From positions 1,767,633 through 1,831,632 of the forward strand of contig CAVUMT010000001.1 of the NCBI GenBank assembly GCA_963742595.1: DNA of 64,000 nucleotides, read 5' to 3'. Shown piece after piece: positions 9,780 to 45,861 of the stretch. The notes beneath the pieces are model-generated. The model had not been told where the DNA came from. It made no database searches and worked only from the letters and a program-made list of their open reading frames with translations. The DNA is from an uncultured Acidobacteriota bacterium. Lineage in GTDB: Bacteria; Acidobacteriota; Vicinamibacteria; Fen-336. The translations under genes and the position numbers were made by a program. Positions within the stretch are counted from its first letter, which is position 1. Every line of letters begins with the position of its first letter.

Positions 9780-10640
9780 GCGCCTCCCGCGAGACGCCGC
9801 CGCCTTCTCCCGCGCCACGAGCGAAAGACGAAGCCCCCGAGGACGAGGACCGTGAGCGCCGAAGCGAGGCGGAGCACGGTCATGATGGTGGCGCTGTAGC
9901 GTCCGGTGACGGGGTCGTACTGGTAGCAGTAGAGGAGGAGCTGGTCGAGCGGGCTCGAGATCTTCCCTTCCCCCGACTCCACGAGGGCGAGGCGCAGGTC
10001 CTTCGGGCGCGTACTCGATGCCGAAGAGGTAGCGCGCGATCTTCCCCTCGGGGGTCAGCACCACGAGCCCCGCGGGATGCGCGAACTGCTTCGTCTCCTC
10101 GTCCCAGGCGTAGCGGAAGCCCACCGCCTTCGCGATTGCCTCGAGGGCCGAGGCGTCGCCGGTCAGGAAGTGCCATCCCGCTGCCGCTTCCGGCTCGCTC
10201 GAGCGGGCGAGGTAGGCCTTCTTCTTGTGCGGCGGCGAGGGCCGGACCCTCCTGGGAGTCGAAGCTGATCGTGACGAGCTCGAACTCGCGGCCCGGGACG
10301 AAGGAGACGACCTCGAGCGCGCTCGCGAGGCCGTTCAGGCTCACGGTGCAGAGCATCGGGCAGTCGAAGTAGACGAGGTTCAGCACGACCGGCTTGCCGC
10401 CGAAGTAGTCGCGAAGGCGCACCGCTCGGCCGCTCTCGTCGCGGAGCGTGAGGTCGAGGGGCAGGCTCTCGCCCAGCTTCTGGTCGAAGCCGATGTCGCG
10501 CAGGGCGTCGGGCGCGGTCGGCCTGGGCGAGCGACCGGCCGCCAGGATGGGCCGGCGAGGAGCGTCACTTCGCCTTCGCCCGAGGACGCGGTCGCGAGAG
10601 AGAGCGTCACTGTGCCCCCCCGGCTCGACCAGGAGCCGCA
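9780..10640 (-). CDS. SCO1/SenC family copper chaperone (frameshifted)
   Basis: Thioredoxin-like core GKPVVLNLVYFDCPMLCT and FRYAWDEETKQFAHPAGLVVLTPEGKIARYLFGIEY; C-terminal hydrophobic tail in a shifted frame. Start not resolved. Confidence 0.6.

Positions 10641-25051: not shown

Positions 25052-25052
<1 letters not shown>
25017..25052 (+). terminator. rho-independent terminator (11-bp GC stem, TTCG loop, T6 run)
   Basis: agggGCGCGGCC ttcg GGTCGCGCCCC followed by TTTTTTCTT immediately after the ompA-like stop. Confidence 0.8.
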
Positions 25053-26281
<1,229 letters not shown>

Positions 26282-26364: not shown

Positions 26365-26393
26365 TTGACAGTTTGGAGGTCGGTACCTACATT
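26365..26393 (+). promoter_or_regulatory. near-consensus sigma70-type promoter (TTGACA-17 nt-TACATT) driving a short transcript toward the tRNA island
   Basis: ctcTTGACAgtttggaggtcggtaccTACATTgggg in the AT-richer rtcB / tRNA-island intergenic region. Exact 17-nt spacer. Confidence 0.55.
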
Positions 26394-26399
26394 GGGGTG

Positions 26400-26637
26400 C
26401 TGAGACTCAAGTGACGATTCGAATTCTCAATTCGAAGTGCACGTCGGTGGCGAGGCCATCTTATTTGGCCGCGCTACGACCCGTCGTCGGCGTGTCGATA
26501 TCCATGGCCGAGCTCTGGATCGACCGGCTGAGCGGCGCGCTGGATAGCGGGAAGGAGGGCGAAACGCCCTAAAGGGTCTGCACTCATTGAGAAACAGGCC
26601 TTCTAGGGCGATCCCCTTGAAGGCCTTTTTTTGTTTT
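26400..26637 (+). ncRNA. candidate small RNA (~235 nt) bounded by the promoter above and an intrinsic terminator
   Basis: No convincing CDS (only a 22-aa ORF at 26504-26572 without an SD). Perfect 8-bp inverted repeat ttcgaatt-ctc-aattcgaa (26418-26436). Possible long-range pairing tctcaat / attgaga and gtgca / tgcac closing about 130 nt. Confidence 0.3.
26596..26637 (+). terminator. rho-independent terminator (aggccttc ... gaaggcct stem followed by TTTTTTTGTTTT)
   Basis: 8-bp stem, 15-nt loop with internal ggg/ccc, T7 run on the plus strand only. Confidence 0.7.
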
Positions 26638-26794
26638 GGTCTGCACTCCGCGGAAATACCGGAGCCAGGCCGGAGGGAGGTTGTGTCTTCGCGACGGGAG
26701 AGTCGTTAGGTGCCGTGGGCTCACCAGCTCGAAAGAGCGGGGTCTTTGACAACCGACGCATGTCGATGGGCCGGTGAACGACACCGGTCCATGT

Positions 26795-26868
26795 TCGGCC
26801 TGGGTGTGGAGGAAGCATCCCACGCTGCCCGCGTGGGGGGACGGGTTCGATTCCCGTAGGCCGATCCA
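26795..26868 (+). tRNA. tRNA-Gly(GCC)-like, non-canonical (D-arm does not fold canonically; pyrimidine at position 37)
   Basis: Acceptor tcggcct/aggccga. T-arm acggg-ttcgatt-cccgt. Anticodon stem ccacg/cgtgg with loop ctGCCcg. CCA encoded. Confidence 0.45.
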
Positions 26869-26870
26869 GA

Positions 26871-26945
26871 GCGAGTGTCGTCCAACGGCAGGACCTCGGG
26901 CCTCCAACCCGATGACGACCGGTTCGAATCCGGCCACTCGCTCCA
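26871..26945 (+). tRNA. tRNA-Gly(UCC) with C at position 33
   Basis: Acceptor gcgagtg/cactcgc. D-stem gtcc/ggac. Anticodon stem tcggg/cccga with loop ccTCCaa. T-loop ttcgaat. Discriminator t, CCA. 2 nt after the previous tRNA. Confidence 0.6.
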
Positions 26946-26951
26946 CGTTCC

Positions 26952-27021
26952 CCCTCTGTCAACGCAGCATGCCGGGCCCTTGACCCGTGCGGTGGTGGTT
27001 CGAGTCCACCCGGAGGGACCA
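26952..27021 (+). tRNA. degenerate 70-nt tRNA-like element (acceptor and T-arm intact; D and anticodon arms do not fold canonically)
   Basis: Acceptor ccctctg/cggaggg with one G-U pair. T-arm ggtgg-ttcgagt-ccacc. Discriminator a, CCA. The central 40 nt give no assignable anticodon. Confidence 0.3.
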
Positions 27022-27049
27022 GTAGCGAATCCGTTCATGGCCACCATCT

Positions 27050-27125
27050 CGGCTCGTGGCGCAATCGGTAGACGCGGCACGTTCAGACCGTGCAGATCGG
27101 GGTTCGAATCCCCGCGAGCCGACCA
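27050..27125 (+). tRNA. tRNA-Leu(CAG)-like with Leu-type D-arm but no long variable arm (class II converted to class I)
   Basis: Acceptor cggctcg/cgagccg. D-arm tggcgcaatcggtagacgcg closely matches bacterial tRNA-Leu. Anticodon stem gcacg/cgtgc with loop ttCAGac. Variable region only agat. T-arm cgggg-ttcgaat-ccccg. A73, CCA. Confidence 0.5.
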
Positions 27126-27155
27126 TCCCCGCGTCACGCGCGGGACCATCCCGGG

Positions 27156-27229
27156 GGGGACATAGTCGAAGGGAAAGACACCGCGTTGTCAGTGCGGCAG
27201 TACGGGTTCGAGTCCCGTTGTCCTCGCCA
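27156..27229 (+). tRNA. tRNA-Asp(GUC)
   Basis: Acceptor ggggaca/tgtcctc. U8. Anticodon stem ccgcg/tgcgg with loop ttGTCag. T-arm acggg-ttcgagt-cccgt. G73, CCA. Atypical D-loop gaagggaaa. Confidence 0.7.
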
Positions 27230-27245
27230 GGATGGGCTCGTCTGT

Positions 27246-27321
27246 TGCGGAGGGAAGGGACGGCGACCTTGGAGGTCTCATAAGCCTCGAAATGCGGGTT
27301 CGATTCCCGCCTCCGCCACCA
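27246..27321 (+). tRNA. tRNA-Met or tRNA-Ile2 (CAU)
   Basis: Acceptor tgcggag/ctccgcc with a 1:72 mismatch. Anticodon stem gaggt/gcctc with loop ctCATaa. T-arm gcggg-ttcgatt-cccgc. A73, CCA. Confidence 0.6.
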
Positions 27322-27323
27322 AT

Positions 27324-27397
27324 AGCCGGTTCGTCCAATGGCAGGACAGCGGTCCTACAAACCGCATACGGGGGTTCGATTCCCTCACCGGCCACCA
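27324..27397 (+). tRNA. tRNA-Val(UAC) with C at position 33
   Basis: Acceptor agccggt/accggcc. D-stem gtcc/ggac. Anticodon stem gcggt/accgc with loop ccTACaa. T-arm ggggg-ttcgatt-ccctc. A73, CCA. 2 nt after the previous tRNA. Confidence 0.6.
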
Positions 27398-27405
27398 GTC
27401 TCGAT

Positions 27406-27481
27406 GGTGAGCGTAAGATAACGGCCATTCGGGGAGGCTGTGTCCCTCCCAGTGCCGGTTCGATTCCGGCCGCTCACCCCA
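27406..27481 (+). tRNA. tRNA-His(GUG) with G-1:C73
   Basis: Extra 5' G before acceptor gtgagcg/cgctcac with discriminator C (the His identity pair). Anticodon stem ggagg/cctcc with loop ctGTGtc (U37). T-arm gccgg-ttcgatt-ccggc. CCA. Confidence 0.65.
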
Positions 27482-27487
27482 GAACAC

Positions 27488-27562
27488 GTCGACGAAGTGT
27501 TACCGGAAGCACGGCGCCCTCGTAACGCGCAAGCGCGGGTTCGACCGCCGCCGTCGGCTCCA
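27488..27562 (+). tRNA. tRNA-Thr(CGU)
   Basis: Acceptor gtcgacg/cgtcggc. D-stem gtgt/gcac. Anticodon loop ctCGTaa. T-loop ttcgacc with a G:G mismatch at 53:61. U73, CCA. Confidence 0.55.
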
Positions 27563-27566
27563 CTCC

Positions 27567-27642
27567 GACCAGCGAGCTTGTGTGGTCATAGCGCTCGGCT
27601 GAAGCCCGAGAGAACGTGGTTCGATTCCACGGCTGGTCACCA
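27567..27642 (+). tRNA. tRNA-Phe(GAA)
   Basis: Acceptor gaccagc/gctggtc. D-arm agcttgtgtggtcatagc. Anticodon stem ctcgg/ccgag with loop ctGAAgc (G37). T-arm cgtgg-ttcgatt-ccacg. A73, CCA. Confidence 0.65.
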
Positions 27643-27760: not shown

Positions 27761-27923
27761 AGACGGCGCTAAGAAGCTGAAAAGCGGTGCCGTTACGGCG
27801 GTTCGATTGAATCGATTTCCGTCGTACGCGATTCCTTCCGGGAAGAACAGCAGGTGCTGCGGCCACTCGGTACGCTTCACCCTCTGGAGACCGAGGCGAT
27901 CGGACCTACAATGGCAGCAGGCC

Positions 27924-29951
27924 ATGTCGATCCAGATCGTTCGCGGCGCCTGCGGGCACGACTGCCCGGACACGTGCAGTTGGATAGTGGAAGCGCAGAA
28001 CGGTACTGCCGGGAAGCTGTACGGCGACCCGGCGCATCCGTTCACCCGCGGCACCCTCTGCGCCAAGGTTAACCATTATCTCGAGCGCGTCTACCACCCC
28101 GATCGCGTCCTCCATCCGCTGAAGCGCGCGGGCCGCAAGGGCGAGGGACAGTTCGTCCGCGTAACCTGGGACGAGGCGCTGACCGAGATCGCGGCGCGGT
28201 GGAAGGCGATCGTCGAGGAATCGGGCGCCGAAGCCATCCTGCCCTACAGCTCGGCGGGCGTGCAGGGGCTGATTCAGCAGGCCTCGCTCGACATGCGGCT
28301 GTTCGGGTCGATGGGGTGCAGCGGCCTCGATCGCAACATCTGCGGCGCGGTCGCTTCCGCGGGCCTCACGTCCACGATTGGAACCGGGACCGGAATCGAT
28401 CCGGAGGAAGTTGTCCATAGCCGGTACGTCGTGTTGTGGGGGACGAACACGATCGTCACGAACCTCCACTTCTGGCCGTTCGTGCGCGAGGCGCAGCGTC
28501 GGGGCGCGAAGATCATCGTGGTGGATCCGGTCCGAACCCGCACTGCGGAAGCGGCCGACTGGCACCTTGCGATCAAGCCGGCCAGCGACGCGGCGCTGGC
28601 GCTCGCGATGATGCACGTCATCGTCCGCGACGGCCTGGTGGATCACGAGTACGTCTCGCGGTATGCGGTCGGGTACGAGGCGCTCGCGGAGCACGTGCGG
28701 CAATACGCTCCGGAGAGCGTGGCGAACACGGTCGGCCTGCCGGCGAGCGACATCGAGCGATTCGCGCGCGAGTACGCGACGACGCAGCCGTGCCTGCTGC
28801 GGCCGCTCATCGGCCCCGAGCACCATCGCAACGGCGCGATGCAGTTCCGTACGATGGCCTGCCTTCCGGTACTGACCGGAGCATGGAGGCATCGCGGCGG
28901 CGGCCTCGCCCGGTCCACGCACAAGCTGCAGTTCGCGGTGCTGGCCAAGGATCGCGTGGAAATGCCGGAGGTGCACAAGCCCGGCGTCCGCGTGCTGAAC
29001 ATGCGCGATCTCGGCAAGGATCTGTGCGACCTGCGGCCACCGATCCGATCGCTCATCGTCTATGGCGCCAATCCGATGGTGTCGATGCCGAATCAGAGCC
29101 GGATTCGCGAAGGCCTCCTGCGCGACGACCTGTTCGCGGTCGTGCAAGACCTGTTCGTCACGGACACCGCGTTGTACGCCGACTACGTGCTGCCGGCCAC
29201 GAGCCAGATCGAGCATCTGGATCTGTCACCCGCCTGGGGGCACCTGTATCTGGCGTTGAATCGCCCGGCCATCGCGCCGCGCGGCGAGTCGGTGTCGAAC
29301 ACCGAGCTCTTCCGACGGCTGGCACGGGCGCTGGGCCGCACGGAGGCGTACTTGTTCGAGAGCGACGAGTCCATGCTGCGCGCGGCGCTGGCGAGCGGGC
29401 ATCCGTGGCTCGACGGGATCACGTACGAACGGTTGTGGAAACAGGGATACGCGCGTCTGAACCGTCCGGAGGACTGGCGCCCCTTTGCAAACGGCGGGTT
29501 CCCGACGCGGAGCGGGAAGGCAGAGCTCTACTCCGAGCCGCTGCGCGAGGCCGGGCACGACCCGCTGCCATCGCCCGGCGAGATTCGATCGAACGGCGGC
29601 CTGCAGTTGATCACCGGGAAGCAGCTGCACTTCCTGAATTCGGGATACAGCAACCAGGACCGGCATCGCCGGCGGGCGGGCGAGTTGTTCATCGAGATCC
29701 ACCCCGACGACGCGAGGACGCGAGGGGTCGCCAACGGGGATTACGTGTCCGTCCGAAACGGGAGCGGCGAAGTGCGCGCCGTCTGCCGTGTATCGGACCG
29801 CGTCCGGCCGGGCGTGGCCTGGATGCCATTCGGCGGCTTCACGGATGCGGGTGGCAAGCGCCTCTCGGTCAACGTCCTCACCCAGGAGGAGCCGACCGAT
29901 TGGGGCGGCGGAAGCGGTTTGTACGATGCGTTCGTAGAGGTTGAGCGCTAA
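27924..29951 (+). CDS. molybdopterin-dependent oxidoreductase, MopB family (assimilatory nitrate reductase / formate-dehydrogenase-like catalytic subunit), cytoplasmic
   Basis: N-terminal 4Fe-4S motif CGHDCPDTCSW. Molybdopterin_binding and molydop_binding domains throughout. 675 aa, intact. No Tat signal and no partner subunit genes. ATG at 27924; the ORF-track TTG at 27807 lies inside the tRNA-remnant region. Confidence 0.75.
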   Translation: MSIQIVRGACGHDCPDTCSWIVEAQNGTAGKLYGDPAHPFTRGTLCAKVNHYLERVYHPDRVLHPLKRAGRKGEGQFVRVTWDEALTEIAARWKAIVEESGAEAILPYSSAGVQGLIQQASLDMRLFGSMGCSGLDRNICGAVASAGLTSTIGTGTGIDPEEVVHSRYVVLWGTNTIVTNLHFWPFVREAQRRGAKIIVVDPVRTRTAEAADWHLAIKPASDAALALAMMHVIVRDGLVDHEYVSRYAVGYEALAEHVRQYAPESVANTVGLPASDIERFAREYATTQPCLLRPLIGPEHHRNGAMQFRTMACLPVLTGAWRHRGGGLARSTHKLQFAVLAKDRVEMPEVHKPGVRVLNMRDLGKDLCDLRPPIRSLIVYGANPMVSMPNQSRIREGLLRDDLFAVVQDLFVTDTALYADYVLPATSQIEHLDLSPAWGHLYLALNRPAIAPRGESVSNTELFRRLARALGRTEAYLFESDESMLRAALASGHPWLDGITYERLWKQGYARLNRPEDWRPFANGGFPTRSGKAELYSEPLREAGHDPLPSPGEIRSNGGLQLITGKQLHFLNSGYSNQDRHRRRAGELFIEIHPDDARTRGVANGDYVSVRNGSGEVRAVCRVSDRVRPGVAWMPFGGFTDAGGKRLSVNVLTQEEPTDWGGGSGLYDAFVEVER

Positions 29952-30102: not shown

Positions 30103-30267
30103 CTATTCGAGGCGGCGTAGAGTGATGTACACCGCAGCTGGTGCGACGGTCCTTCCGGTTCGTCGGTGGATTTCGTCCACGATGGGCACACCATAGACGC
30201 CATCGCCGAGGTGGAGAATCGCGAGGAGGACCATGTGCTCGAACTCGCCGAGCGCTTCCCGAGTCAT
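30103..30267 (-). pseudogene. PadR family transcriptional regulator interrupted by an in-frame TAG after the HTH
   Basis: MTREALGEFEHMVLLAILHLGDGVYGVPIVDEIHRRTGRTVAPAAVYITLRRLE-TAG-KGLLTSS...; the PadR-like sequence continues downstream of the stop. Confidence 0.55.
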
Positions 30268-30436
30268 GCCGCACCCGCGTTCAGCGATGTCTGGTCCAAC
30301 AACGACAAAAACATACAACGCTAATAATAAGGACGGCCGGCACGGTTTGTTCACGGTGCGTTCCGAAGCGAGTTCACACGCCTGACCCATTCGCCAATCC
30401 GGTTCCAACTCGCGAAAATGCGGCTCACCAACCGCT

Positions 30437-30511
30437 CCCCTCGTAGGCTAATGCATAGACCACCGGGTTACGAACCCGTCAGTGGAGGTTGGAGTCCTCC
30501 CGAGGGGACCA
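30437..30511 (+). tRNA. tRNA-Arg(ACG) with G at T-loop position 56 and a D-loop lacking GG
   Basis: Acceptor cccctcg/cgagggg. U8. Anticodon loop ttACGaa. T-arm ggagg-ttGgagt-cctcc. D-loop aatgcat (possible C19:G56 swap). A73, CCA. Confidence 0.6.
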
Positions 30512-30543
30512 TCCCCGCTTCGTCTAACGCACAGACGCATCAT

Positions 30544-30635
30544 CCCGGTCGGGAGGCCAGCGCCTCGAGCGGGCTTATACCCCGTTGCGCCAGATCAGCG
30601 CCTAGATCCAGGGGCAGCACCTGGGGCCGGGACCA
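30544..30635 (+). tRNA. class-II-sized (92 nt) tRNA-like element with non-TPsiC T-loop; anticodon unassigned (possibly UAU)
   Basis: Acceptor cccggtc/ggccggg with a G-U pair. A73, CCA. T-stem ccagg/cctgg with loop ggcagca. Candidate anticodon stem gcggg/cccgt with loop ctTATac. Confidence 0.25.
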
Positions 30636-30636
30636 C

Positions 30637-30726
30637 GGAGAGGAAAGGGCGAGCGGGGAGCCCAGCACACTGCTAACGTGCCGAGGCCAGGCGGCCGCGA
30701 GAGTTCGAATCTCTCCCTCTCCGCCA
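30637..30726 (+). tRNA. tRNA-Ser(GCU), class II
   Basis: Acceptor ggagagg/cctctcc. D-stem gggc/gccc. Anticodon loop ctGCTaa. Long variable arm cgaggccaggcggccgc. T-arm gagag-ttcgaat-ctctc. G73, CCA. Starts 1 nt after the previous element. Confidence 0.65.
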
Positions 30727-30750
30727 TTGACCTCGGGTGGCTCCTGAGTC

Positions 30751-30810
30751 AACTCCGTCCGGACGGAGTTGCTTCAGAAACTACTTGAGGTGACTCGTTC
30801 CGGAACGAGT
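30751..30810. repeat. two tandem perfect palindromes with TCCGGA cores (aactccgtcc|ggacggagtt and actcgttcc|ggaacgagt)
   Basis: 10-bp and 9-bp perfect inverted repeats 22 nt apart; the second ends exactly at the 5' end of tRNA-Cys. Confidence 0.6.
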
Positions 30811-30884
30811 GGTGGGTTGGCCGAGCGACGAGGCGCTGGCCTGCAAAGCCAGTTAGCGGGGTTTGAGTCCCCGACCCACCTCCA
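30811..30884 (+). tRNA. tRNA-Cys(GCA) with U at T-loop position 56
   Basis: Acceptor ggtgggt/acccacc. U8. Anticodon stem ctggc/gccag with loop ctGCAaa. T-arm cgggg-ttTgagt-ccccg. U73, CCA. D-loop without GG. Confidence 0.6.
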
Positions 30885-31029
30885 CCACGGATCCGAAACA
30901 GAGCTCAGCGGCGAGGCCGCGAACGAGCTGATACCCCCGGGCCGGCGGTGCGTGTCGCCCCACTTTCGTGGTCGGCGGTGCGCATTCCGCGTACGGGATC
31001 TAACGAAGGAGGTGTCAGGACTGGAGATG

Positions 31030-31054
31030 GCGGGTTCGACACCCGCCATCACCC
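31030..31054 (+). other. tRNA 3'-half fragment (T-arm plus acceptor 3' strand) without a matching 5' half
   Basis: gcggg-ttcgaca-cccgc followed by catcacc c. No complementary 5' acceptor within 80 nt upstream. No CCA. Confidence 0.35.
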
Positions 31055-31125
31055 ATTGGCTAGCTCAGTGGCAGAGCACCGAGCCATTAACTCGGGGGTC
31101 GCAGGTTCAAATCCTGCTCCAAAGT
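31054..31125 (+). tRNA. tRNA-like gene with canonical D- and T-arms but unusual anticodon loop (ccATTaa) and imperfect acceptor stem; no CCA
   Basis: D-arm tagctcagtggcagagca. Anticodon stem ccgag/ctcgg. T-arm gcagg-ttcaaat-cctgc. Acceptor cattggc/tccaaag pairs at 5 of 7 positions. Possible pseudo-tRNA or att-site remnant. Confidence 0.35.
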
Positions 31126-31445
31126 CGTGAGTCGTGAGTGCGGTCTCCGGAGGGCGGCCGTCGTGATCCGCCGGCCGATCGCGGGCGCTCGTGAGGTCCG
31201 CGGACGGCAGCGCGCAGAGGCGTCCTGAAGCGCGCGGATACCGGCCCCGCCCAAACACCCCGATCCCCCGGGGCGCTGCGCGTGACGCTCGGTCGAGGTC
31301 GCGCGTGGCCCTCTCGGGTGACGGGTGGATTCGGCGGGGCCTCAAGTCGCGCTCCATGCCCGAGGCGTGGCGGCCGACGTCCCGCCCTTCGGGGACCATC
31401 TTGTCGTCAGGCAGGCGATTGGATAGCGAGAAAGAGAGGTGCCCA

Positions 31446-32555
31446 TTGTGGGTTCTATTCCGTCGTTTCAAGGTTCGTGAGAACGAGCGCGGTCTCCTGT
31501 TCAAGGACCGCGATTTCCAGCGTGTCCTCGGTCCCGGCCGCCGCTTCGTCTGGGACCCCCTGCTGAACGTCCATGCCGACGTCGTGTCGGTGCGCGACGT
31601 GTGGCTCGACCACCGTGACCTGGAAGTGATCGTCCGCTCGGGCGCGCTCGAGGGAGAGGCGAAGGTCCTCGACCTCAAGGACCACGAGCGTGCCGTGGTG
31701 TGGGTGGACGGCCGCGTGGAGGCGGTCCTCAAGGCGGGCCTCTACGCGCTCTGGACGGTCTTCCACGACGTGCGGGTCGAGGTCTTCGACGCCCGCACGG
31801 TCCGCTTCGAGCACCCCGACCTCGCGGTCATCACCCAGGCGCGGAACGCACAGGCGCTCCTGGAGGCGGTGACCGTGGAGGCGGGCCACGCCGGTCTCTT
31901 CTTCAAGGACGGACGCCACGAGGCAACGCTCGCCTCGGGCGCCCACGCCTTCTGGAAGGGCTTCGGCAAGGCCCGCATCCTCGACGTGGACCTCCGCGAG
32001 CAGGTCGTGGACGTGGCCGGCCAGGAGATCATGACCGCGGACAAGGTGACGCTGCGCCTGAACGCGGTCGTGACCTTCAAGGTCGCGGATCCCCTGAAGG
32101 CCGTGAGCGCGGTGGAGGACTACCGTCAGGCCCTCTACCGCGAGGCGCAGCTCGCGCTGCGGGGCGTCGTGGGCACGCGCGTGCTCGACGCGCTCCTGGG
32201 CGACAAGGACGCGGTCGCCCGCGAGCTCGACGGCCTCGTCCGCGGCCGAGTGGCCGGCTTCGGTGTCGAGGTCGTGGCCCTCGGCATCCGCGACGTCATC
32301 CTTCCCGGCGAGATGAAGGACCTCATGAACAAGGTGACCGAGGCCCAGAAGGCGGCCGAGGCCGCCCTCATCACGCGCCGCGAGGAGACGGCGGCCATGC
32401 GATCGCAGGCCAACACCGCGAAGATCCTCGAGTCGAGCCCCACCCTGATGCGTCTGCGTGAGCTCGAGGTCCTCGAGAAGGTCGCGGAGAAGGCCAACCT
32501 GACGGTCGTCCTCGGCGAGAAGGGTCTCGCCGATCGTGTCGTCAAGCTGCTCTGA
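31446..32555 (+). CDS. SPFH/band 7 (stomatin-like) domain protein
   Basis: TTG start preceded by GAGAGG. ...FRRFKVRENERGLLFKDRDF..., two band-7 repeats, C-terminal coiled region. The ORF-track extension upstream to 31191 has no start codon support. Confidence 0.7.
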   Translation: MWVLFRRFKVRENERGLLFKDRDFQRVLGPGRRFVWDPLLNVHADVVSVRDVWLDHRDLEVIVRSGALEGEAKVLDLKDHERAVVWVDGRVEAVLKAGLYALWTVFHDVRVEVFDARTVRFEHPDLAVITQARNAQALLEAVTVEAGHAGLFFKDGRHEATLASGAHAFWKGFGKARILDVDLREQVVDVAGQEIMTADKVTLRLNAVVTFKVADPLKAVSAVEDYRQALYREAQLALRGVVGTRVLDALLGDKDAVARELDGLVRGRVAGFGVEVVALGIRDVILPGEMKDLMNKVTEAQKAAEAALITRREETAAMRSQANTAKILESSPTLMRLRELEVLEKVAEKANLTVVLGEKGLADRVVKLL

Positions 32556-40322: not shown

Positions 40323-40469
40323 TGGCGTTGTGACCGGCATCACCGGCGACCCACCGCGACTGAGCTTGACTAGACGGGGCTTCTTGCCCTTACCCTAGTG
40401 TCAGGTCGGCCGGTCCCAGGAGGGACGGCAGGGCCGCCCCGAACCCCCCGAACCTAAGGAGCCAAGGCC

Positions 40470-40835
40470 ATGCTTCTCTCCAGCCTCGTCCTCGCCTCCG
40501 CGCTCGTCGCCGCGCAAGAGCCCGCCCCCATGACGGCCCCGCCCCCCCAGGACCCTTCTGCGAGCGCCGCCACCGGCGGCGGACAATCCAGCATCGACGC
40601 CGGCCTCGCCGCCTTCAAGAAACGCCGCTTCTCCAAGGCCGAGGCCGAGTTCCAAAAGGCGGTCGCGGCCGACCCGTCGAGCGCGGCCGCGAACTTCTAT
40701 CTCGGCTACACCTACTACAAGATCGCGGAGCCCCGCCGCCGCGACTCCGCGGGCAAGCAGAAAGCGCTCGAGTACTTCGACAAGGCCTTCGAGCTCGACC
40801 CTTCGTTCACGCCGGTCTGGCAGAGCCGCAAGTAG
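40470..40835 (+). CDS. small secreted TPR-like protein
   Basis: AAGGAG SD. Signal MLLSSLVLASALVAAQ. ...EFQKAVAADPSSAAANFYLGYTYYKIAEP... TPR-like helix pair. 121 aa. Confidence 0.55.
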   Translation: MLLSSLVLASALVAAQEPAPMTAPPPQDPSASAATGGGQSSIDAGLAAFKKRRFSKAEAEFQKAVAADPSSAAANFYLGYTYYKIAEPRRRDSAGKQKALEYFDKAFELDPSFTPVWQSRK

Positions 40836-40859
40836 CGGGCTAGGGCAGGAATTTCCCGA

Positions 40860-42167
40860 AGAGAGCTCGTCTTGCTCAGGTCGGAATAGAGGACGAGCCC
40901 GACGAGCAGGAAGCATGACCGCGGCCCCCGCGTTCATGATCCACGTCTTGACGGACAGGCTGAAGTCGCGGCGGAGGAGACCCTCGCCGGCGAGGATCGC
41001 GAGGTGGCCGCCGTCGAGGGGGGCCAGCGGGAAGAGGTTCAGGAGCCCGACCTGGAGGCTGATGACCGCGACGAGAAAGACGAGCCGGTCCCATCCCTCG
41101 CGCGCGGCGTCCCCCGAGGCCTGGGCGATGCCCAGCGGGCCCATCATCGTCTTCGGCGAGAGCTGCGCCGTGAGGAGCCGCTTCAGGATGTCGAGGGTCT
41201 GCAGCGTCATGTCCCAGGCCCAGCGGCAGGCCGCGACGAACGCCCCTCCCGGCCCGAATTTCTTGACCACCAGCTTGGGCGCGATCCCGATGCGCGGTCC
41301 CGCCCCGGAATCCTTCGGAGTGACGGAGAGCGTCCGGACGTCGCCGTCGCGCCAGATCTCGACGTCGAGGGGCTTGCCCGCGGCCGCGCCCACGAGGGGC
41401 AGGATGTCGTTGAAGGAGCCGATCGGCTTTGTCCCCGATCTTGAGGATCGCGTCGTCCGCCTTGAAGCCCGCGCCCTCCGCGGGCTGACCCTCGATCACC
41501 TGGCCGATGCGGACGAGCGGGTGGACGCCGATGGAGCCCACCCTTTCCGCGGTTGCGCTCTCCGCGACGACCTCGATCTGGCGCTCCTCGCCTCCTCGGC
41601 GCAGGCGGATCGGGTACTTCCGGCCGGGGCGGACGAGGATCTGGTAGTGCGCTTCCTCCCAGTTCGCGACCGGCTCGCCCTCGATGGCCAGGATCTCGTC
41701 GCCCGTCCGGATCCCCGCCGCCTCCGCGGGTGAGCCGGCGTCCACCGCTCCCACGACGGCCTTCTCGTAGCGGCTGTCGAAGGTCGCGAAGCCGATCATG
41801 TAGAAGACCGTGAGCAGCGAGATGGTGAGGACGGCGTTCATCGCCGGGCCCGCGAGGTAGACGAGGAAGCGCTGCCAGCGGGGGCGGCTCGTGAAGTCGC
41901 GGCCGTCTCCGACGACCACGGCGCTCGTGTCCTCGCTGAGGTGGTCGTCGGGCTCGCCCTCGAGCTTGACGTAGCCGCCCGAGGGGGATGAGCGAGACGC
42001 CGGCAGTCGGTGTCGCCCCACTTGAAGCCGAAGAGGCGCTTGCCGAAGCCGAAGGAGAAGATGAACACCCGCATGCCGAAGGCCTTGGCCGTGATGAGGT
42101 GTCCGAACTCGTGCACGAAGATGATGACGCCGAGCACGAAGACGAAAGCGAGGAGCGTGGTGATCAT
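40860..42167 (-). CDS. rseP: RIP metalloprotease RseP (site-2 protease), frameshifted
   Basis: N-terminal HEFGHLITAKAFGMRV (HExxH). PDZ domains. C-terminal LNLFPLAPLDGGHLAILAGE in a second frame. Confidence 0.75.
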
Positions 42168-42189
42168 AGGGTCTCGGGCTAGATGACTC

Positions 42190-43367
42190 AGGAAATGGCG
42201 CGTGCCACGGAAAGGCGCCGGAGAGCCTCTCGGGATCTCTCGCGCGCCCAGCGCGTCGGCGGCGAGCACGTCCTCGAGCCGCGCGAGCGGCGCGGCGGGA
42301 TGGGCGTCCAGCACCTCCAGGATGGACTCGGGGATGGCGGGGAAGGGGATCCGGCCGTCCAGGAAGGCGGCCACCGCCTCCTCGTTGGCCGCGTTCAGCA
42401 CCGCGGGAGCGGAGCCGCCCGCCTCGAGGGCCGCGTAGGCGAGGCCGAGGCAGGGGAAGCGCTCGCGGTCGGGCGGGTCGAAGTCGAGGCGCAGGGGCCG
42501 CGTGAAGTCCATCCCCGGGATGGCCGCCTCCCAGCGCTCGGGGTGGCTGAGCGCGTACTGGATGGGCAGGCGCATGTCGGTGACGCCGAGCTGGGCGAGC
42601 ACGGTGCCGTCCACGAACTCGACCATGGAGTGGACGACCGACTGCGGGTGGATGAGCACCTCGATGCGGGCGGCGGGAACGCCGAAGAGCCAGCGCGCCT
42701 CGATGACCTCGAGGCCCTTGTTCATGAGGGTCGCGGAGTCGATCGTGATCTTGCGGCCCCATGGTCCAGGTGGGATGGTTGAGCGCCTCGTCGCGGGTGA
42801 TGCGTCGAAGGTCTCGCGCGGCCGGTTGCGGAAGGGGCCGCCGGAGGCGGTGAGCACGAGCCGGCGCACCTCCTCGGGCCCGCGGCCGTCCAGGCACTGG
42901 TGGAGCGCGCAGTGCTCGCTGTCGATGGGCAGGAGCCGGCCCCCCGCGCCCGGGCCTGCGCGATCATGAGCTCGCCCGCCATCACCAGCGTCTCCTTGTT
43001 GGCGAGGGCCACGTCCTTGCCCGCCTCGAGCGCGCGGTAGGTGGGGACGAGGCCGACCGCTCCCACCGCCGAGGCCACCACGATGCGCGGCCTCGGGGTG
43101 GGTGGCGACCTCCACCATCCCCGCCTCGCCGATCGCCGACCCGCAGGCCCGAGAGGTCGACGAGCCGCCCGAGGGCCTCGCGGGCGGGGCCGCGTCGCCA
43201 CGGAGACGACCCGCGGCCGGTGGCGCGCCACCTGCTCGGCCAGGCGCTCCGACGTTCGCTCCCGCGGAGAGGCCAATCACCCGGAAGCGATCGGGAAAGG
43301 CCTCCACGATCCGCAGCACGTTCGTGCCCACGGAGCCGGTGGAGCCGAGGATGGAAAGGCCTTTCAT
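42190..43367 (-). CDS. dxr: 1-deoxy-D-xylulose 5-phosphate reductoisomerase (two frameshifts)
   Basis: [35 protein letters not shown] (shifted frame), C-terminal domain ...[11 protein letters not shown]... Confidence 0.8.
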
Positions 43368-43411
43368 GAGGGGGCTCTAAGCGCGAACGGCCCCGTCGAG
43401 CGGGGCCGCTT

Positions 43412-44267
43412 TCAGCGCACGTACAGAAAGTAATAGTACAGGACCGGCGCGCCGAACAGCAAGCTGTCGAGGCGATCGAGCATCCCCCCGTGGCCGGGGA
43501 AGAGCGCGCCCGAATCCTTGACGCCCGCCCAGCGCTTGAGCAGGCTCTCGTCGAGGTCGCCCACGATCCCGAGCGCCGCGACGGCGACCCCCAGGACGAT
43601 CGCGTGGACGAGCGGCAGGTCGGGCAGGCCGAGGGCCCGAACCGCGAGCGCTCCCACGACGCCGCCCAGCGAGCCCCCCCAGCGCGCCCTCGACCGTCTT
43701 GCCGGGCGAGATCGCGGGGGCGAGCGCGTCGGCGTCCCGACAGGCGTGCCCCACGAAGAAGGCGAGCGTGTCGGAGACCATGATGATGGCGAGGAGCAGG
43801 ACGAGGCGCCAGGCGCCCTTCGGCGACGGGCTCGACGACGAGGAGGGCGGCCATCGTGCCCCCGAGCGCCCCCAGGTAGACGGCTCCGAGCAGCGTGGCC
43901 GCGGCCGCGGGGACTCGCTCTGCCGAACGTCTCCGCGGGCGAGGGTCGGCCACGAACAGCACGAGCAGCGCCAGGGGCCAGAGGGGGCATCCGCACCAGT
44001 CCCGGAATCGCCACTTCCACGAAGATCGCGGCGGCCAGGACGAAGCCCGTGCCGTCGTCATCGGGCGCGAGTCCGCCGCGCCCGCAGGAGCCCGAAGAAC
44101 TCGTAGGCCCAACCAGCGTCACCGCCGCTACCACGCTCCACCCGAGCGCGGGGGGGCCCAGGAAGAGGGCGGCCACGAGCGCGGGCAGGGCGACGACGGC
44201 GGTCGTAACGCGTCGAGCGAGGTTGGCGAGGAATCCGGGCGGGACCCGCGTGACCTCGGGGGTCAAA
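43412..44267 (-). CDS. cdsA: phosphatidate cytidylyltransferase (frameshifted), TTG start overlapping the uppS stop
   Basis: CdsA signature TLAFFVGHA...[12 protein letters not shown] in one frame. C-terminal ...[39 protein letters not shown] in another. Confidence 0.75.
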
Positions 44268-45046
44268 CCGCGGTGATGCCGCCGTAGCGCCGCTCGCGCT
44301 TCTGGTAGTCGGCGATCGCCTGGAGCAGGTGCTGGCGGCGGAAGTCCGGCCAGAGCACGTCCGTGACCCAGATCTCGGCGTAGGCGATCTGCCAGAGCAG
44401 GAAGTTCGAGACCCGCAGCTCGCCGCTCGTGCGGATGAGGAGGTCGGGGTCGGGCTGGCCCGCGGTGTAGAGATACGACGAGATCGTCTCCTCGTCGATG
44501 CTTGTTCGGGTCGCGGCCGTTCGCCACCACGTCGGCGAGGAGCCGGCGCACGGCGTCCGTGATCTCCGCCCGTCCCCCGTAGTTGAGCGCGATGTTGAAG
44601 AGGAGCCCCGTGCTCTCCGCGGTCCTCTCCATGCCCCGCTCCAGCTCCTCCTGCACGTCCCGGGGCAGGTCGTCCATGCGGCCGATGACCTGGAAGCGGA
44701 TGTTGTTCTTCAGGAGGGTGTTGAGCTCCATGCGCAGGTAGTGCTTGAGCAGGCCCATGAGGGTCGTGACCTCGGTCTCGGGCCGCTTCCAGTTCTCGAT
44801 CGAGAAGGCGTAGAGGGTCAGCACCTGCAGACCGAGCCGGGCCGAGGTCTCGACCACGTCGCGCACGGCGTCGATGCCCGCCCGGTGCCCCTCGACCCGG
44901 CGCTTGCGCCGCTGCTTCGCCCAGCGGCCGTTGCCGTCCATGATGATGGCGACGTGCCGCGGAAGGCGGGCGAAGTCGATGGCGCGGAGGAGCGACTGCT
45001 CCTCCGAGCCGGCGGGGACGACGTCCAGCAGGTCCTGCAGGGACAT
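44262..45046 (-). CDS. uppS: undecaprenyl diphosphate synthase (isoprenyl transferase), one frameshift
   Basis: [13 protein letters not shown], ...[13 protein letters not shown]..., C-terminal ...YGGITAV recovered by translating the shifted frame. Confidence 0.8.
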
Positions 45047-45050
45047 TGGG

Positions 45051-45861
45051 CTAGACGGGGGGCATCGTCGCATCGAAAGGCTCAATGGTAGCACCGGGTA
45101 GTCGCACGCGCACGAGGGTGAGGCCGCAGGCGGGCGCGGGGGCGGGCCAGCGCCGGCGGTCGCGGGCTTCGAGCGCCCGCGCCAGATCGTCCACGGTGAG
45201 GGCGCCCCGCCCCACGGCGACGAGGCCACCCACCATGCTGCGCACCATCTTGCGCAGGAAGCCGTCGGCCTCCACCTCGTAGACGAGCGTCCGCTCCCCC
45301 TCGGCTCCGTCGCGTCGTGGCTCGAAACGCGCGGCGGAGCTCGTCACCGTGCGCTCGGTCGTCCTCGCCGATCCTCCCGCCGACGCGAGCGACGCGAAGT
45401 CGTGGCGCCCGACGTAAAGGCTCGAGGCGCCGCACGACCGCGGGCTCGGTCCAGCGACCAGGGCGTGTGCGCCGCGTACGCCGCCGCTGGGGCACGCTGG
45501 ATCCCGCCGGTGTCGAGGACGTAGCGGTAGAGCTTGGAGCGCGCGCTCTTCCGCGCGTGGAACCCCTCGGGGGCGCGGGCGGCGTCGAGCACGCGCACGT
45601 CCTCGGGGAGCAGCCCGTTCAGGGCGCGGGCGAGGTCGTCGGGGCGAAGCTCGCGGGGCAGCTCGAACGAGGCGACCTGGCCCAGCGCGTGGACTCCGGC
45701 GTCGGTGCGTCCCGCCCCCGCCACCGCCACCCGCCCGTTCGCCGCGAGCCGGGCGAGGGCCCTCTCCAGCACCCCCTGCACGGTACGCGCCCCCGGGCCT
45801 GCGACTGCCAGCCCTGGAAGTCCGTGCCGTCGTAGGCGAGGGTGATCCGGTAGAGGGGCAC
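45051..45861 (-). CDS. truA: tRNA pseudouridine(38-40) synthase TruA (about 2 frameshifts)
   Basis: YRITLAYDGTDFQGWQ, GRTDAGVHALGQVASF, C-terminal ...GFLRKMVRSMVGGLV... Confidence 0.75.

Follow-up and report, generated by a model that had tools for sequence, protein, structure and literature searches.

A compact tRNA gene array, probably a partly decayed one of the L-array type, in an RtcB/Band-7 locus of an uncultured Acidobacteriota bacterium

Long arrays of tRNA genes that spread horizontally are already known, both as tRNA array units (PMC4758250, PMC5966550) and as L-arrays (PMC8421152). In Anabaena, translational stress induces the L-array, which helps the cells to survive; aminoacylation in vivo holds for 23 of the 26 tRNAs, three of the 26 genes are pseudogenes, and in other cyanobacteria rtcB neighbours the L-arrays and is co-regulated with them (PMC8421152). 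The regulon of the repressor TrcR comprises rtcB, the trn array, an HNH gene and a slipin/Band-7 gene (PMC10272220). An anti-defence role has been proposed for arrays (PMC12803027, citing van den Berg 2023), and both the array class and the idea that it acts against nucleases are already in the literature. Of the supplementary tRNA arrays, that of Anabaena is the only one with functional data. Here we describe an array of ten tRNA or tRNA-like genes from an uncultured Vicinamibacteria bacterium (Acidobacteriota; Fen-336), at positions 26795-27642 of a 64,000-nt stretch of contig CAVUMT010000001.1 (assembly GCA_963742595.1), hereafter the window. The trio of rtcB, tRNA array and Band-7 gene of the TrcR regulon is present in the window too, and PMC8421152 lists Acidobacteria among the phyla that have no L-arrays and in which stand-alone tRNA genes dominate.

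The array is probably a small, partly decayed and horizontally spread supplementary tRNA set of the L-array type, lying in an RNA-damage-response locus of RtcB, a Band-7 protein and a tRNA associated with band 7 (b7a-tRNA), where it would act, or would once have acted, as an inducible source of replacement tRNAs. With default settings, ARAGORN calls nine tRNA genes on the plus strand; a tenth, degenerate unit between Gly(UCC) and Leu(CAG) is called only at a relaxed threshold (-ps80), as tRNA-Lys(CUU). An earlier reading of the sequence alone (hereafter the sequence-only reading) had described ten tRNA-sized units running head to tail with spacers of 2-30 nt and encoded CCA ends, and this description holds: a 3' CCA is encoded in ten of ten units, and the successive spacers are 2, 2, 28, 30, 16, 2, 9, 6 and 4 nt. 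Ten units in 848 nt amount to about 12 per kb, in excess of the density of at least 2 per kb by which array units are recognized, and the single orientation, the ten different anticodons in non-periodic order and the short spacers together give the layout that defines L-arrays. The T-arm motif GGTTCRANYCC occurs ten times within the ~850 nt of the array (nine exact) and 38 times in the whole window, where ~20 matches are expected by chance, so its density in the array is far beyond chance. Against RF00005, the Rfam tRNA covariance model with a gathering score of 29 bits, seven of the ten units pass with 35.3-58.6 bits; the three that do not reach it are Gly(GCC), His and the degenerate unit. 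The tRNA or tRNA-like nature of the ten units is genuine, and ARAGORN finds no tRNA gene in the window outside the array and a second group at 30437-31126.

Five of the ten units depart from the rule that U33 goes with a purine 37. Gly(UCC), Val(UAC) and the degenerate unit have C33, Gly(GCC) has C37 and His has U37, and the five others are canonical at both positions. The C33 loops of Gly(UCC) and Val(UAC) and the pyrimidines at position 37 of Gly(GCC) and His had all been picked out by the sequence-only reading and are all present. U8 is substituted in four members, and Met(CAU) and Val(UAC) have a mismatch between positions 1 and 72. The Gly(UCC) unit carries the glycine identity features G1-C72, C2-G71, G3-C70 and U73. 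Gly(GCC) has as its sole match a 19.4-bit hit to tRNA-Sec, and its C37 is absent from every Gly(GCC) of the other arrays examined; because this base is peculiar to the window and sits in a structurally defective unit, it may reflect decay or error rather than adaptation, and the unit is probably a pseudogene or affected by sequence error. The degenerate unit had been described as having an unfoldable core between intact acceptor and T arms. The two arms are indeed intact, but RNAfold gives the core a tRNA-like fold that lacks a D-arm and has an extended anticodon stem closed by the loop CCCUUGA (CUU, C33, G37); no Rfam match to it is found even at E<=10. Asp, Phe, Thr and His had been taken to look functional. 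His does encode G-1 opposite C73, but it has a two-pair D-stem and stays below the RF00005 threshold (a 27.6-bit tRNA-Sec match starts at 27406), and Thr has two mismatches and A8. We take at least three of the ten units to be probably without function: Gly(GCC), the degenerate unit and, possibly, His or Thr.

For comparison, we surveyed 160 RtcB loci, half of them (80) from GTDB species representatives and the other 80 from metagenomes; fetched comparison loci carry L-numbers, with L163 for Streptomyces phage NootNoot and L164 for phage Manuel. Same-strand arrays of 4-33 tRNAs lie near RtcB in 19 of the 160 loci, and where reference-genome records name the array host, it belongs to the Bryobacterales (Acidobacteriota), Planctomycetota or Myxococcales (Myxococcota). 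In a Bryobacterales locus (L032, 5313-12298), a 25-tRNA array, Rsr/Ro60, a YrlA Y-RNA (82 bits), RtcB and RtcA all lie on one strand, and in a Planctomycetota metagenome-assembled genome (MAG; L018, 9992-13500) RtcB and RtcA are followed by a 10-tRNA array. The arrays appear to be optional modules of classical RNA-repair operons. L025 (9636-9774) has YrlA beside RtcB and no array. The window RtcB has its closest relatives, at 85% identity, in Vicinamibacteria MAGs among the reference genomes and metagenomes; in the RtcB neighbourhoods compared, neither the loci with RtcB of 81-85% identity (L001, L081, L082, L086) nor those at 72-73% (L002-L005) have an array, and they share with the window only RtcB, or RtcB and Band-7. 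The distribution is therefore patchy, and the suggestion of the sequence-only reading that the array resembles acquired arrays rather than a housekeeping operon is borne out, since the hallmarks of the array (encoded CCA, short-arm Leu, low covariance scores, and C33 in Gly(UCC) and Val(UAC)) recur in other patchily distributed arrays, from Acidobacteriota, Planctomycetota and Myxococcota. Ten genes are many for Acidobacteria and few beside the 20-34-gene arrays found near RtcB. Array tRNAs score 37-72 bits against RF00005 and stand-alone tRNAs 66-75 bits, a range into which the stand-alone Vicinamibacteria tRNA-Glu of L001 falls; 27 of the 33 array members of L014 pass the threshold, and the window, with seven of ten units passing at 35-59 bits, is at the low end of normal for such arrays.

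Some units of the other loci have anticodons unusual for bacteria: Cys(ACA) (L014 8600-8676), a 92-nt 'Ile(UAU)' (L014 8845-8936) and Arg(GCG) (L017 9490-9567) in arrays, and Thr(AGU) in phage Manuel (L164 2646-2721). Their identities may be misassigned, or the tRNAs may depend on modification of A34 or on some other modification. RtcB loci without an array often carry one tRNA-sized element ~60-170 nt upstream of RtcB (L041, L054, L059, L154 at 9839-9926, L052, L156, L016, L139 and L112). In Melainabacteria and Obscuribacterales this is an 88-nt 'Ser(GCU)' without CCA, and elsewhere it has odd loops such as GUUAUGC or GUCUUGC. Such lone elements are probably tRNA-like cofactor RNAs of the YrlA or b7a type, not tRNAs.

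To our knowledge, bacterial housekeeping tRNA-Leu genes are all expected to have a long variable arm. The Leu(CAG) unit of the window had been reported to combine a Leu-type D-arm and A73 with the lack of such an arm, and it does so (Table 1); with U8 and the D-loop AAUCGGUAGA, it has the features of a type I tRNA-Leu. The same holds across the arrays, in which 14 of 14 unique Leu genes are 75-78 nt long and Ser and Tyr keep long arms. When the window Leu(CAG) is aligned with 13 short Leu genes of other arrays (alignment A1), the Leu-type D-arm and A73 prove to be conserved, and the acceptor-, D- and anticodon-stem sequences vary. The four Leu genes of the Anabaena trn L-array are likewise short-armed, as are those of phages NootNoot and Manuel and of one IMG/VR RtcB contig. 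NootNoot has two Leu(UAG) genes, both of the short kind.

C33, too, proves to be a patterned feature of arrays near RtcB. It is present in 51 of 206 unique array tRNAs (25%) but in 1 of 28 stand-alone tRNAs of the same loci (Fisher p=0.008), the one exception adjoining another tRNA at a contig edge. Its occurrence is isoacceptor-specific: Ala and Val always have it, Gly-UCC, Ser-CGA and Ile-GAU usually do, and about two-thirds of Thr-UGU and Thr-GGU do, whereas it is never found in Asn, His, Phe, Lys, Gln, Trp or Leu-CAG of the surveyed arrays. The window matches this pattern, with C33 in Gly-UCC and Val-UAC in loops seen elsewhere: CCUCCAA is identical in the Gly(UCC) of L014, L017, L023 and L032, and CCUACAA is found in the Val(UAC) of L032 and L033 (CCUACAC in L067). 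The window Val is also 80-82% identical to tRNA-Val genes of Streptomyces phages, which have U33, and the U37 of the window His recurs in the His of phage Manuel. Family-box tRNAs have C33 in 35 of 74 cases (47%) and split-box tRNAs in 16 of 132 (12%; p=6e-8), the C33-rich family-box tRNAs being Ala, Val, Gly, Thr and Ser-UCN. Counted by anticodon, C33 is in the majority for 10 of 16 family-box versus 3 of 21 split-box anticodons (p=0.005), and the contrast holds separately for a Myxococcales array (6/10 versus 3/17) and for other metagenome arrays (10/23 versus 4/49). This dependence on the codon box implies that the array tRNAs are constrained by decoding and thus are, or recently were, used in translation; the pattern is unexpected for dead pseudogenes or pure decoys. 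C33 as a general trait of L-arrays or phage clusters was rejected, as it is found in 0 of 24 Anabaena array tRNAs, 0 of 35 tRNAs of the two Streptomyces phages and 1 of 35 tRNAs of the IMG/VR RtcB loci.

The bases flanking the anticodon are the fastest-evolving part of the array tRNAs. Among 37 ortholog clusters of array tRNAs built at a minimum of 80% identity, variation is seen at position 32 in 16% and at positions 33 and 38 in 19% each, about three times the tRNA average (6% of columns overall; binomial p=1e-5), while position 37 and the stem positions vary in 0-8%; all changes at position 33 are between U and C. The literature searched yielded no report of frequent, patterned C33 in tRNA arrays, of raised variability at positions 32, 33 and 38, of short-arm Leu as a universal feature of such arrays, or of arrays embedded in Rsr-YrlA-RtcB-RtcA operons outside cyanobacteria.

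The sequence-only reading had mentioned neither the adjacent rtcB nor the four further tRNA or tRNA-like genes at 30437-31126, which together with a Band-7 gene lie 2.8-4.9 kb downstream of the array (Table 1). RtcB joins 3'-phosphate or 2',3'-cyclic-phosphate ends to 5'-OH ends. Its gene is divergent from the array and ~0.5 kb away. A structured region follows the promoter in this interval, with a perfect palindrome (TTCGAATT-CTC-AATTCGAA) inside it at 26418-26436 and a 17-bp hairpin with a T-run at its end (26592-26640), flanked by the direct repeat GGTCTGCACTC. No Rfam match to 26365-26645 was found; from its sequence features the region could be a leader, an attenuator controlling the array, or a small RNA. 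Beyond the oxidoreductase gene, a PadR regulator between the two clusters was considered and rejected, as the 54-aa open reading frame (ORF) there is a below-threshold fragment matching the N-terminal half of the winged-helix profile; it may be what is left of a truncated or frameshifted regulator gene. In the second cluster, Arg and Cys score 47.1 and 53.1 bits against RF00005 and Ser is below the threshold.

The CCA-less element 'Asn(AUU)' directly upstream of the Band-7 gene shares ~80% identity with the DNA that immediately precedes the Band-7 gene in the acidobacterial loci L004 and L005, in which the Band-7 homologue adjoins RtcB, and its 'anticodon' differs among the three. In L004 the b7a-tRNA, Band-7 and RtcB genes follow one another in that order on one strand within 2.8 kb, and in L005 the b7a-tRNA and Band-7 gene come after RtcB with a gap of ~1.5 kb. 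According to bioRxiv 10.1101/312249, Burroughs & Aravind predicted a band 7-associated tRNA beside RtcB and a Band-7 protein, and by sequence and position the window element matches this putative b7a-tRNA. Because RtcB, Band-7 and a conserved CCA-less tRNA-like element are all present, we place the array within an RtcB/Band-7/b7a-tRNA RNA-repair locus, albeit a rearranged one: RtcB (minus strand) and the b7a-tRNA and Band-7 genes (plus strand) do not form an operon but are 4.8 kb apart, with the array and the oxidoreductase gene between them. Just 5' of the tRNA-like element is a T-arm-like minihelix, GATGGCGGG-TTCGACA-CCCGCCATC-ACCC (31026-31053), and a weak, partial YrlA match (22.5 bits, 31022-31082) spans the two. 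As this partial match is the only one, a YrlA or other Y RNA beside the window RtcB was rejected. The tRNA-rich region of phage NootNoot (L163, 78159-90224) has a gene for a band-7-like membrane protein and another for a Ro-like protein that binds RNA, and a tRNA-Asn(GUU) lies 33 nt upstream of the band-7 gene there, in the same order of tRNA and then Band-7 as in the window.

Table 1. Positions and properties of the array units and of neighbouring features in the window (bit scores are for RF00005)
Feature	Position	Strand	Properties	Source
tRNA-Gly(GCC)-like, aberrant	26795-26868	+	loop CUGCCCG (C37), G8, U1-A72 pair, nucleotides 9 and 26 absent	ARAGORN
tRNA-Gly(UCC)	26871-26945	+	C33, loop CCUCCAA; good cloverleaf; 50.8 bits	ARAGORN, Rfam
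Degenerate tRNA-like unit	26948-27021	+	acceptor stem CCCTCTG/CGGAGGG, T-arm, A73 and CCA intact; no D-arm	RNAfold
tRNA-Leu(CAG), type I	27050-27125	+	76 nt, Leu-type D-arm, A73, 4-5 nt variable region; 58.6 bits	
tRNA-Asp(GUC)	27156-27229	+	loop UUGUCAG, G73; 57.4 bits	ARAGORN, Rfam
tRNA with CAU anticodon (Met; possibly Ile2 or initiator-like)	27246-27321	+	U1xC72 mismatch, G8; 38.9 bits	
tRNA-Val(UAC)	27324-27397	+	C33, loop CCUACAA, A1xC72 mismatch, A73; 56.2 bits	
tRNA-His(GUG)	27406-27481 (ARAGORN 27407-27481)	+	encoded G-1 (27406) opposite C73; U37, loop CUGUGUC; two-pair D-stem	
tRNA-Thr(CGU)	27488-27562	+	C31xC39 and G53xG61 mismatches, A8; 35.3 bits	
tRNA-Phe(GAA)	27567-27642	+	loop CUGAAGC (G37), G8, A73; 48.6 bits	
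RtcB RNA ligase gene	25052-26281	-	E=1e-131, full length; start codon chosen from translation	Pfam RtcB
Sigma70-like promoter	26365-26393	+	TTGACA-17-TACATT	promoter scan
Structured region, ~240 nt, after promoter	within 26365-26645	+	fold z-score -4.07 against shuffled sequence	
Molybdopterin oxidoreductase gene	27807-29951		714 aa, intact ORF; between the two tRNA clusters	
PadR-like fragment, 54-aa ORF	30104-30268	-	between oxidoreductase gene and tRNA-Arg; E=0.005, 17 bits, below threshold	
Second, looser cluster: tRNA-Arg(ACG), tRNA-Ser(GCU), tRNA-Cys(GCA)	30437-30884	+	all encode CCA, all U33	ARAGORN
CCA-less tRNA-like element 'Asn(AUU)'	31054-31126	+	loop CCAUUAA, two acceptor mismatches; 46.4 bits; directly upstream of Band-7 gene	
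SPFH/Band-7 domain protein	31191-32555	+	E=4.8e-35	Pfam Band_7

If the array is a supplementary set of the L-array type, it would normally be silent or weakly expressed. Were ribotoxins, phage or antibiotics, for example, to cleave host tRNAs or stall translation, it would supply replacement tRNAs whose anticodon-loop flanks are unlike those of the housekeeping tRNAs, and RtcB would reseal the cleaved tRNAs in parallel, a scheme that we name 'repair and replace'. C33 would be tolerated or favoured mainly in four-fold codon boxes, where the precision of wobble pairing is unimportant. Several observations weigh against this assignment. The tRNA genes of the window cover about 12 amino acids, and their number, 10 in the array or 13-14 in total, is below the 20 or more that define an array unit (PMC4758250). 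Several members are defective at normally invariant positions (U8, G53-C61, the D-stem), a molybdopterin oxidoreductase gene divides the two tRNA clusters, and RtcB is divergent from the array rather than co-oriented with it. Pfam and Rfam scans detected no RtcA, Rsr or YrlA in the window, and no shared operator was found, the palindrome TTCGAATTCTCAATTCGAA being single-copy there. The window tRNAs are 60-76% identical to those of other arrays, too little for a claim of common descent or, with Leu(CAG) as a weak exception, of orthology. Finally, whether the short Leu is charged hinges on the LeuRS of the host, since E. coli LeuRS is reported to charge type II tRNA-Leu only, even though the type I tRNA-Leu(CAA) of S. 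coelicolor, an exception to the long-arm rule, is charged by its host LeuRS (PMC6614811).

Alternatively, the array may be a non-functional, decaying remnant of an acquired array, in which the odd positions would stem from relaxed constraint instead of adaptation and no gene would be expressed or charged. Three of the ten units are below the RF00005 threshold; Gly(GCC) lacks two nucleotides and has its unique C37, the G53-C61 pair of Thr is broken, the D-stem of His is down to two pairs and U8 is lost in four units. The array numbers ten genes against 20-34 in related arrays, a metabolic gene divides the cluster, and pseudogenes make up 3 of 26 genes in the Anabaena array (PMC8421152). We nonetheless regard this account as rather unlikely. 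A paired acceptor stem, the T-arm and CCA are kept in ten of ten units, and the seven units that pass the covariance model have scores within the range of large arrays such as L014 (37-72 bits). The C33 sites depend on isoacceptor and codon box in the way seen in other arrays, a pattern not to be had from random decay, and in short-arm Leu genes of different lineages the stems stay paired despite their differing sequences.

The surroundings of the array are chromosomal in character: the window has ~70% G+C and Gram-negative chromosomal genes, including those for OmpA and BamB-like proteins and dxr, rseP, uppS and cdsA, and the ORFs scanned (~10-45 kb of the window) included none for an integrase, a transposase or an HNH protein. 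A plasmid origin was rejected because the DNA has no match in the plasmid collection, and a phage origin because phage matches are confined to RtcB (~75% identity) and single tRNA genes (~80%), with no phage genes seen in the window. This setting would suit an ordinary housekeeping tRNA operon of the Vicinamibacteria lineage with odd positions typical of that lineage, and the window offers no other tRNA genes for comparison. Such an operon is nevertheless improbable, as the stand-alone tRNAs of related genomes score 66-75 bits and have U33 in 27 of 28 cases, the nearest RtcB loci lack the array, Leu in bacteria is expected to be long-armed, with one Streptomyces exception (PMC6614811), and the features of the array match those of mobile arrays and phage clusters.

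The quality of the sequence has its own bearing on the odd positions. Three ORFs at 40.4-43.4 kb, in frames 2, 0 and 2, hold segments 1-48, 55-106 and 109-219 of a single Peptidase_M50 domain from an rseP-like Peptidase_M50/PDZ gene; within 40401-45229 (minus strand) dxr runs into the M50 N-terminus without a stop, and fragments of uppS and cdsA share one ORF. These breaks in essential genes suggest assembly indels at about one per kb, as in unpolished long reads, and they make indel-type oddities, such as the geometry of Gly(GCC), whose missing nucleotides could have arisen in this way, and perhaps part of the degenerate unit, insecure. That the odd positions stem from assembly or consensus errors, the tRNA genes being ordinary otherwise, is, however, very improbable, because substitutions or differences of several bases, not single homopolymer indels, underlie C33, U37 and the short Leu arm, the CCUCCAA and CCUACAA loops and the short Leu recur in many independent assemblies, and the flanking RtcB and 714-aa oxidoreductase ORFs are intact.

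Selection to escape anticodon nucleases, which the sequence-only reading had offered as a possible source of the loop variation, is plausible but unproven. In its favour are the location of the array in an RNA-repair locus and the rapid evolution of positions 32, 33 and 38 in orthologous array tRNAs. On the other side, U33 is retained in Lys, Asn, His, Gln and Arg(ACG), which are the classical targets, and mostly in Asp and Tyr, and the gamma-toxin of K. lactis cleaves U33C substrates normally (PMC2275089). C33 as a simple escape from classical anticodon nucleases is therefore weakened, both by its family-box bias and by the indifference of gamma-toxin to U33C. Escape where decoding can afford it is still viable, because some toxins cut beside position 33, such as CdiA-CT EC536, which cleaves between positions 32 and 33 and leaves a 2',3'-cyclic phosphate and a 5'-OH, ends of the kind sealed by RtcB (PMC11724271). 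We tentatively suggest, as a possibility to which we do not yet lean, that RtcB-linked arrays are the 'replace' arm of a two-armed immunity module, repair and replace, against anticodon-loop ribotoxins, providing spares competent in translation that would be under diversifying selection at positions 32, 33 and 38 against cleavage and would have C33 in the four-fold codon boxes, where it is affordable. If this were so, the C33 tRNAs would be a natural and widespread class of functional bacterial elongator tRNAs that break the U33 rule.

Patterned C33 breaks a rule that is among the most conserved in tRNA structure, and the window locus and its relatives link supplementary tRNA arrays physically with genes for RNA repair (RtcB, RtcA, Rsr, Y-RNA, Band-7) in three or more additional phyla. 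Annotation pipelines should not by default discard such genes as pseudogenes.

Among described systems, the L-array (the trn operon of Anabaena sp. PCC 7120, Santamaria-Gomez et al. 2021) shares with the window a tight, same-strand, multi-isotype array with some pseudogenes and a patchy distribution, a neighbouring or co-regulated rtcB, a Band-7/slipin gene in the regulon or locus, and Leu genes that are all short-armed. It differs in size (26-43 genes versus 10 here, or 13-14 with the second cluster), in its HNH endonuclease, which is lacking near the window array, and in C33, found in 2-3 members of the window array versus 0 of 24 in that of Anabaena. tRNA array units (Tran et al. 2016, PMC4758250; for Mycobacterium, PMC5966550 and PMC12803027) have in common with the window a high gene density, a distribution like that of horizontally transferred genes, a redundancy with housekeeping genes that in the window is presumed, and a proposed anti-defence role, but the window is without an evident plasmid, integrative and conjugative element (ICE) or phage backbone.

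With the RtcB repair systems (Burroughs & Aravind 2016, as cited in bioRxiv 10.1101/312249; Chen et al. 2014, PMC4201824; Hughes et al. 2020, PMC7790460) the window shares RtcB, Band-7 and the CCA-less element, and related arrays sit inside Rsr-YrlA-RtcB-RtcA operons. A single tRNA-like cofactor RNA is found in the published systems where the arrays have 10-34 CCA-encoding tRNAs, and the window differs further in the separation of RtcB and Band-7 on opposite strands and in the absence of Rsr, YrlA and RtcA. Phage tRNA clusters (van den Berg et al. 2023, PMC10264068; NootNoot, Manuel) are likewise compact and multi-isotype, with short-arm Leu and anticodon loops that differ from those of host tRNAs, but those examined have almost no C33 (0/35, 1/35), and CCA is for the most part not encoded. 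The type I tRNA-Leu(CAA) of S. coelicolor (PMC6614811) has the ~5-nt variable loop, U8-A14 and G18G19 core of the window Leu(CAG); it is a single chromosomal gene, whereas the Leu(CAG) of the window belongs to a family found in every mobile array examined.

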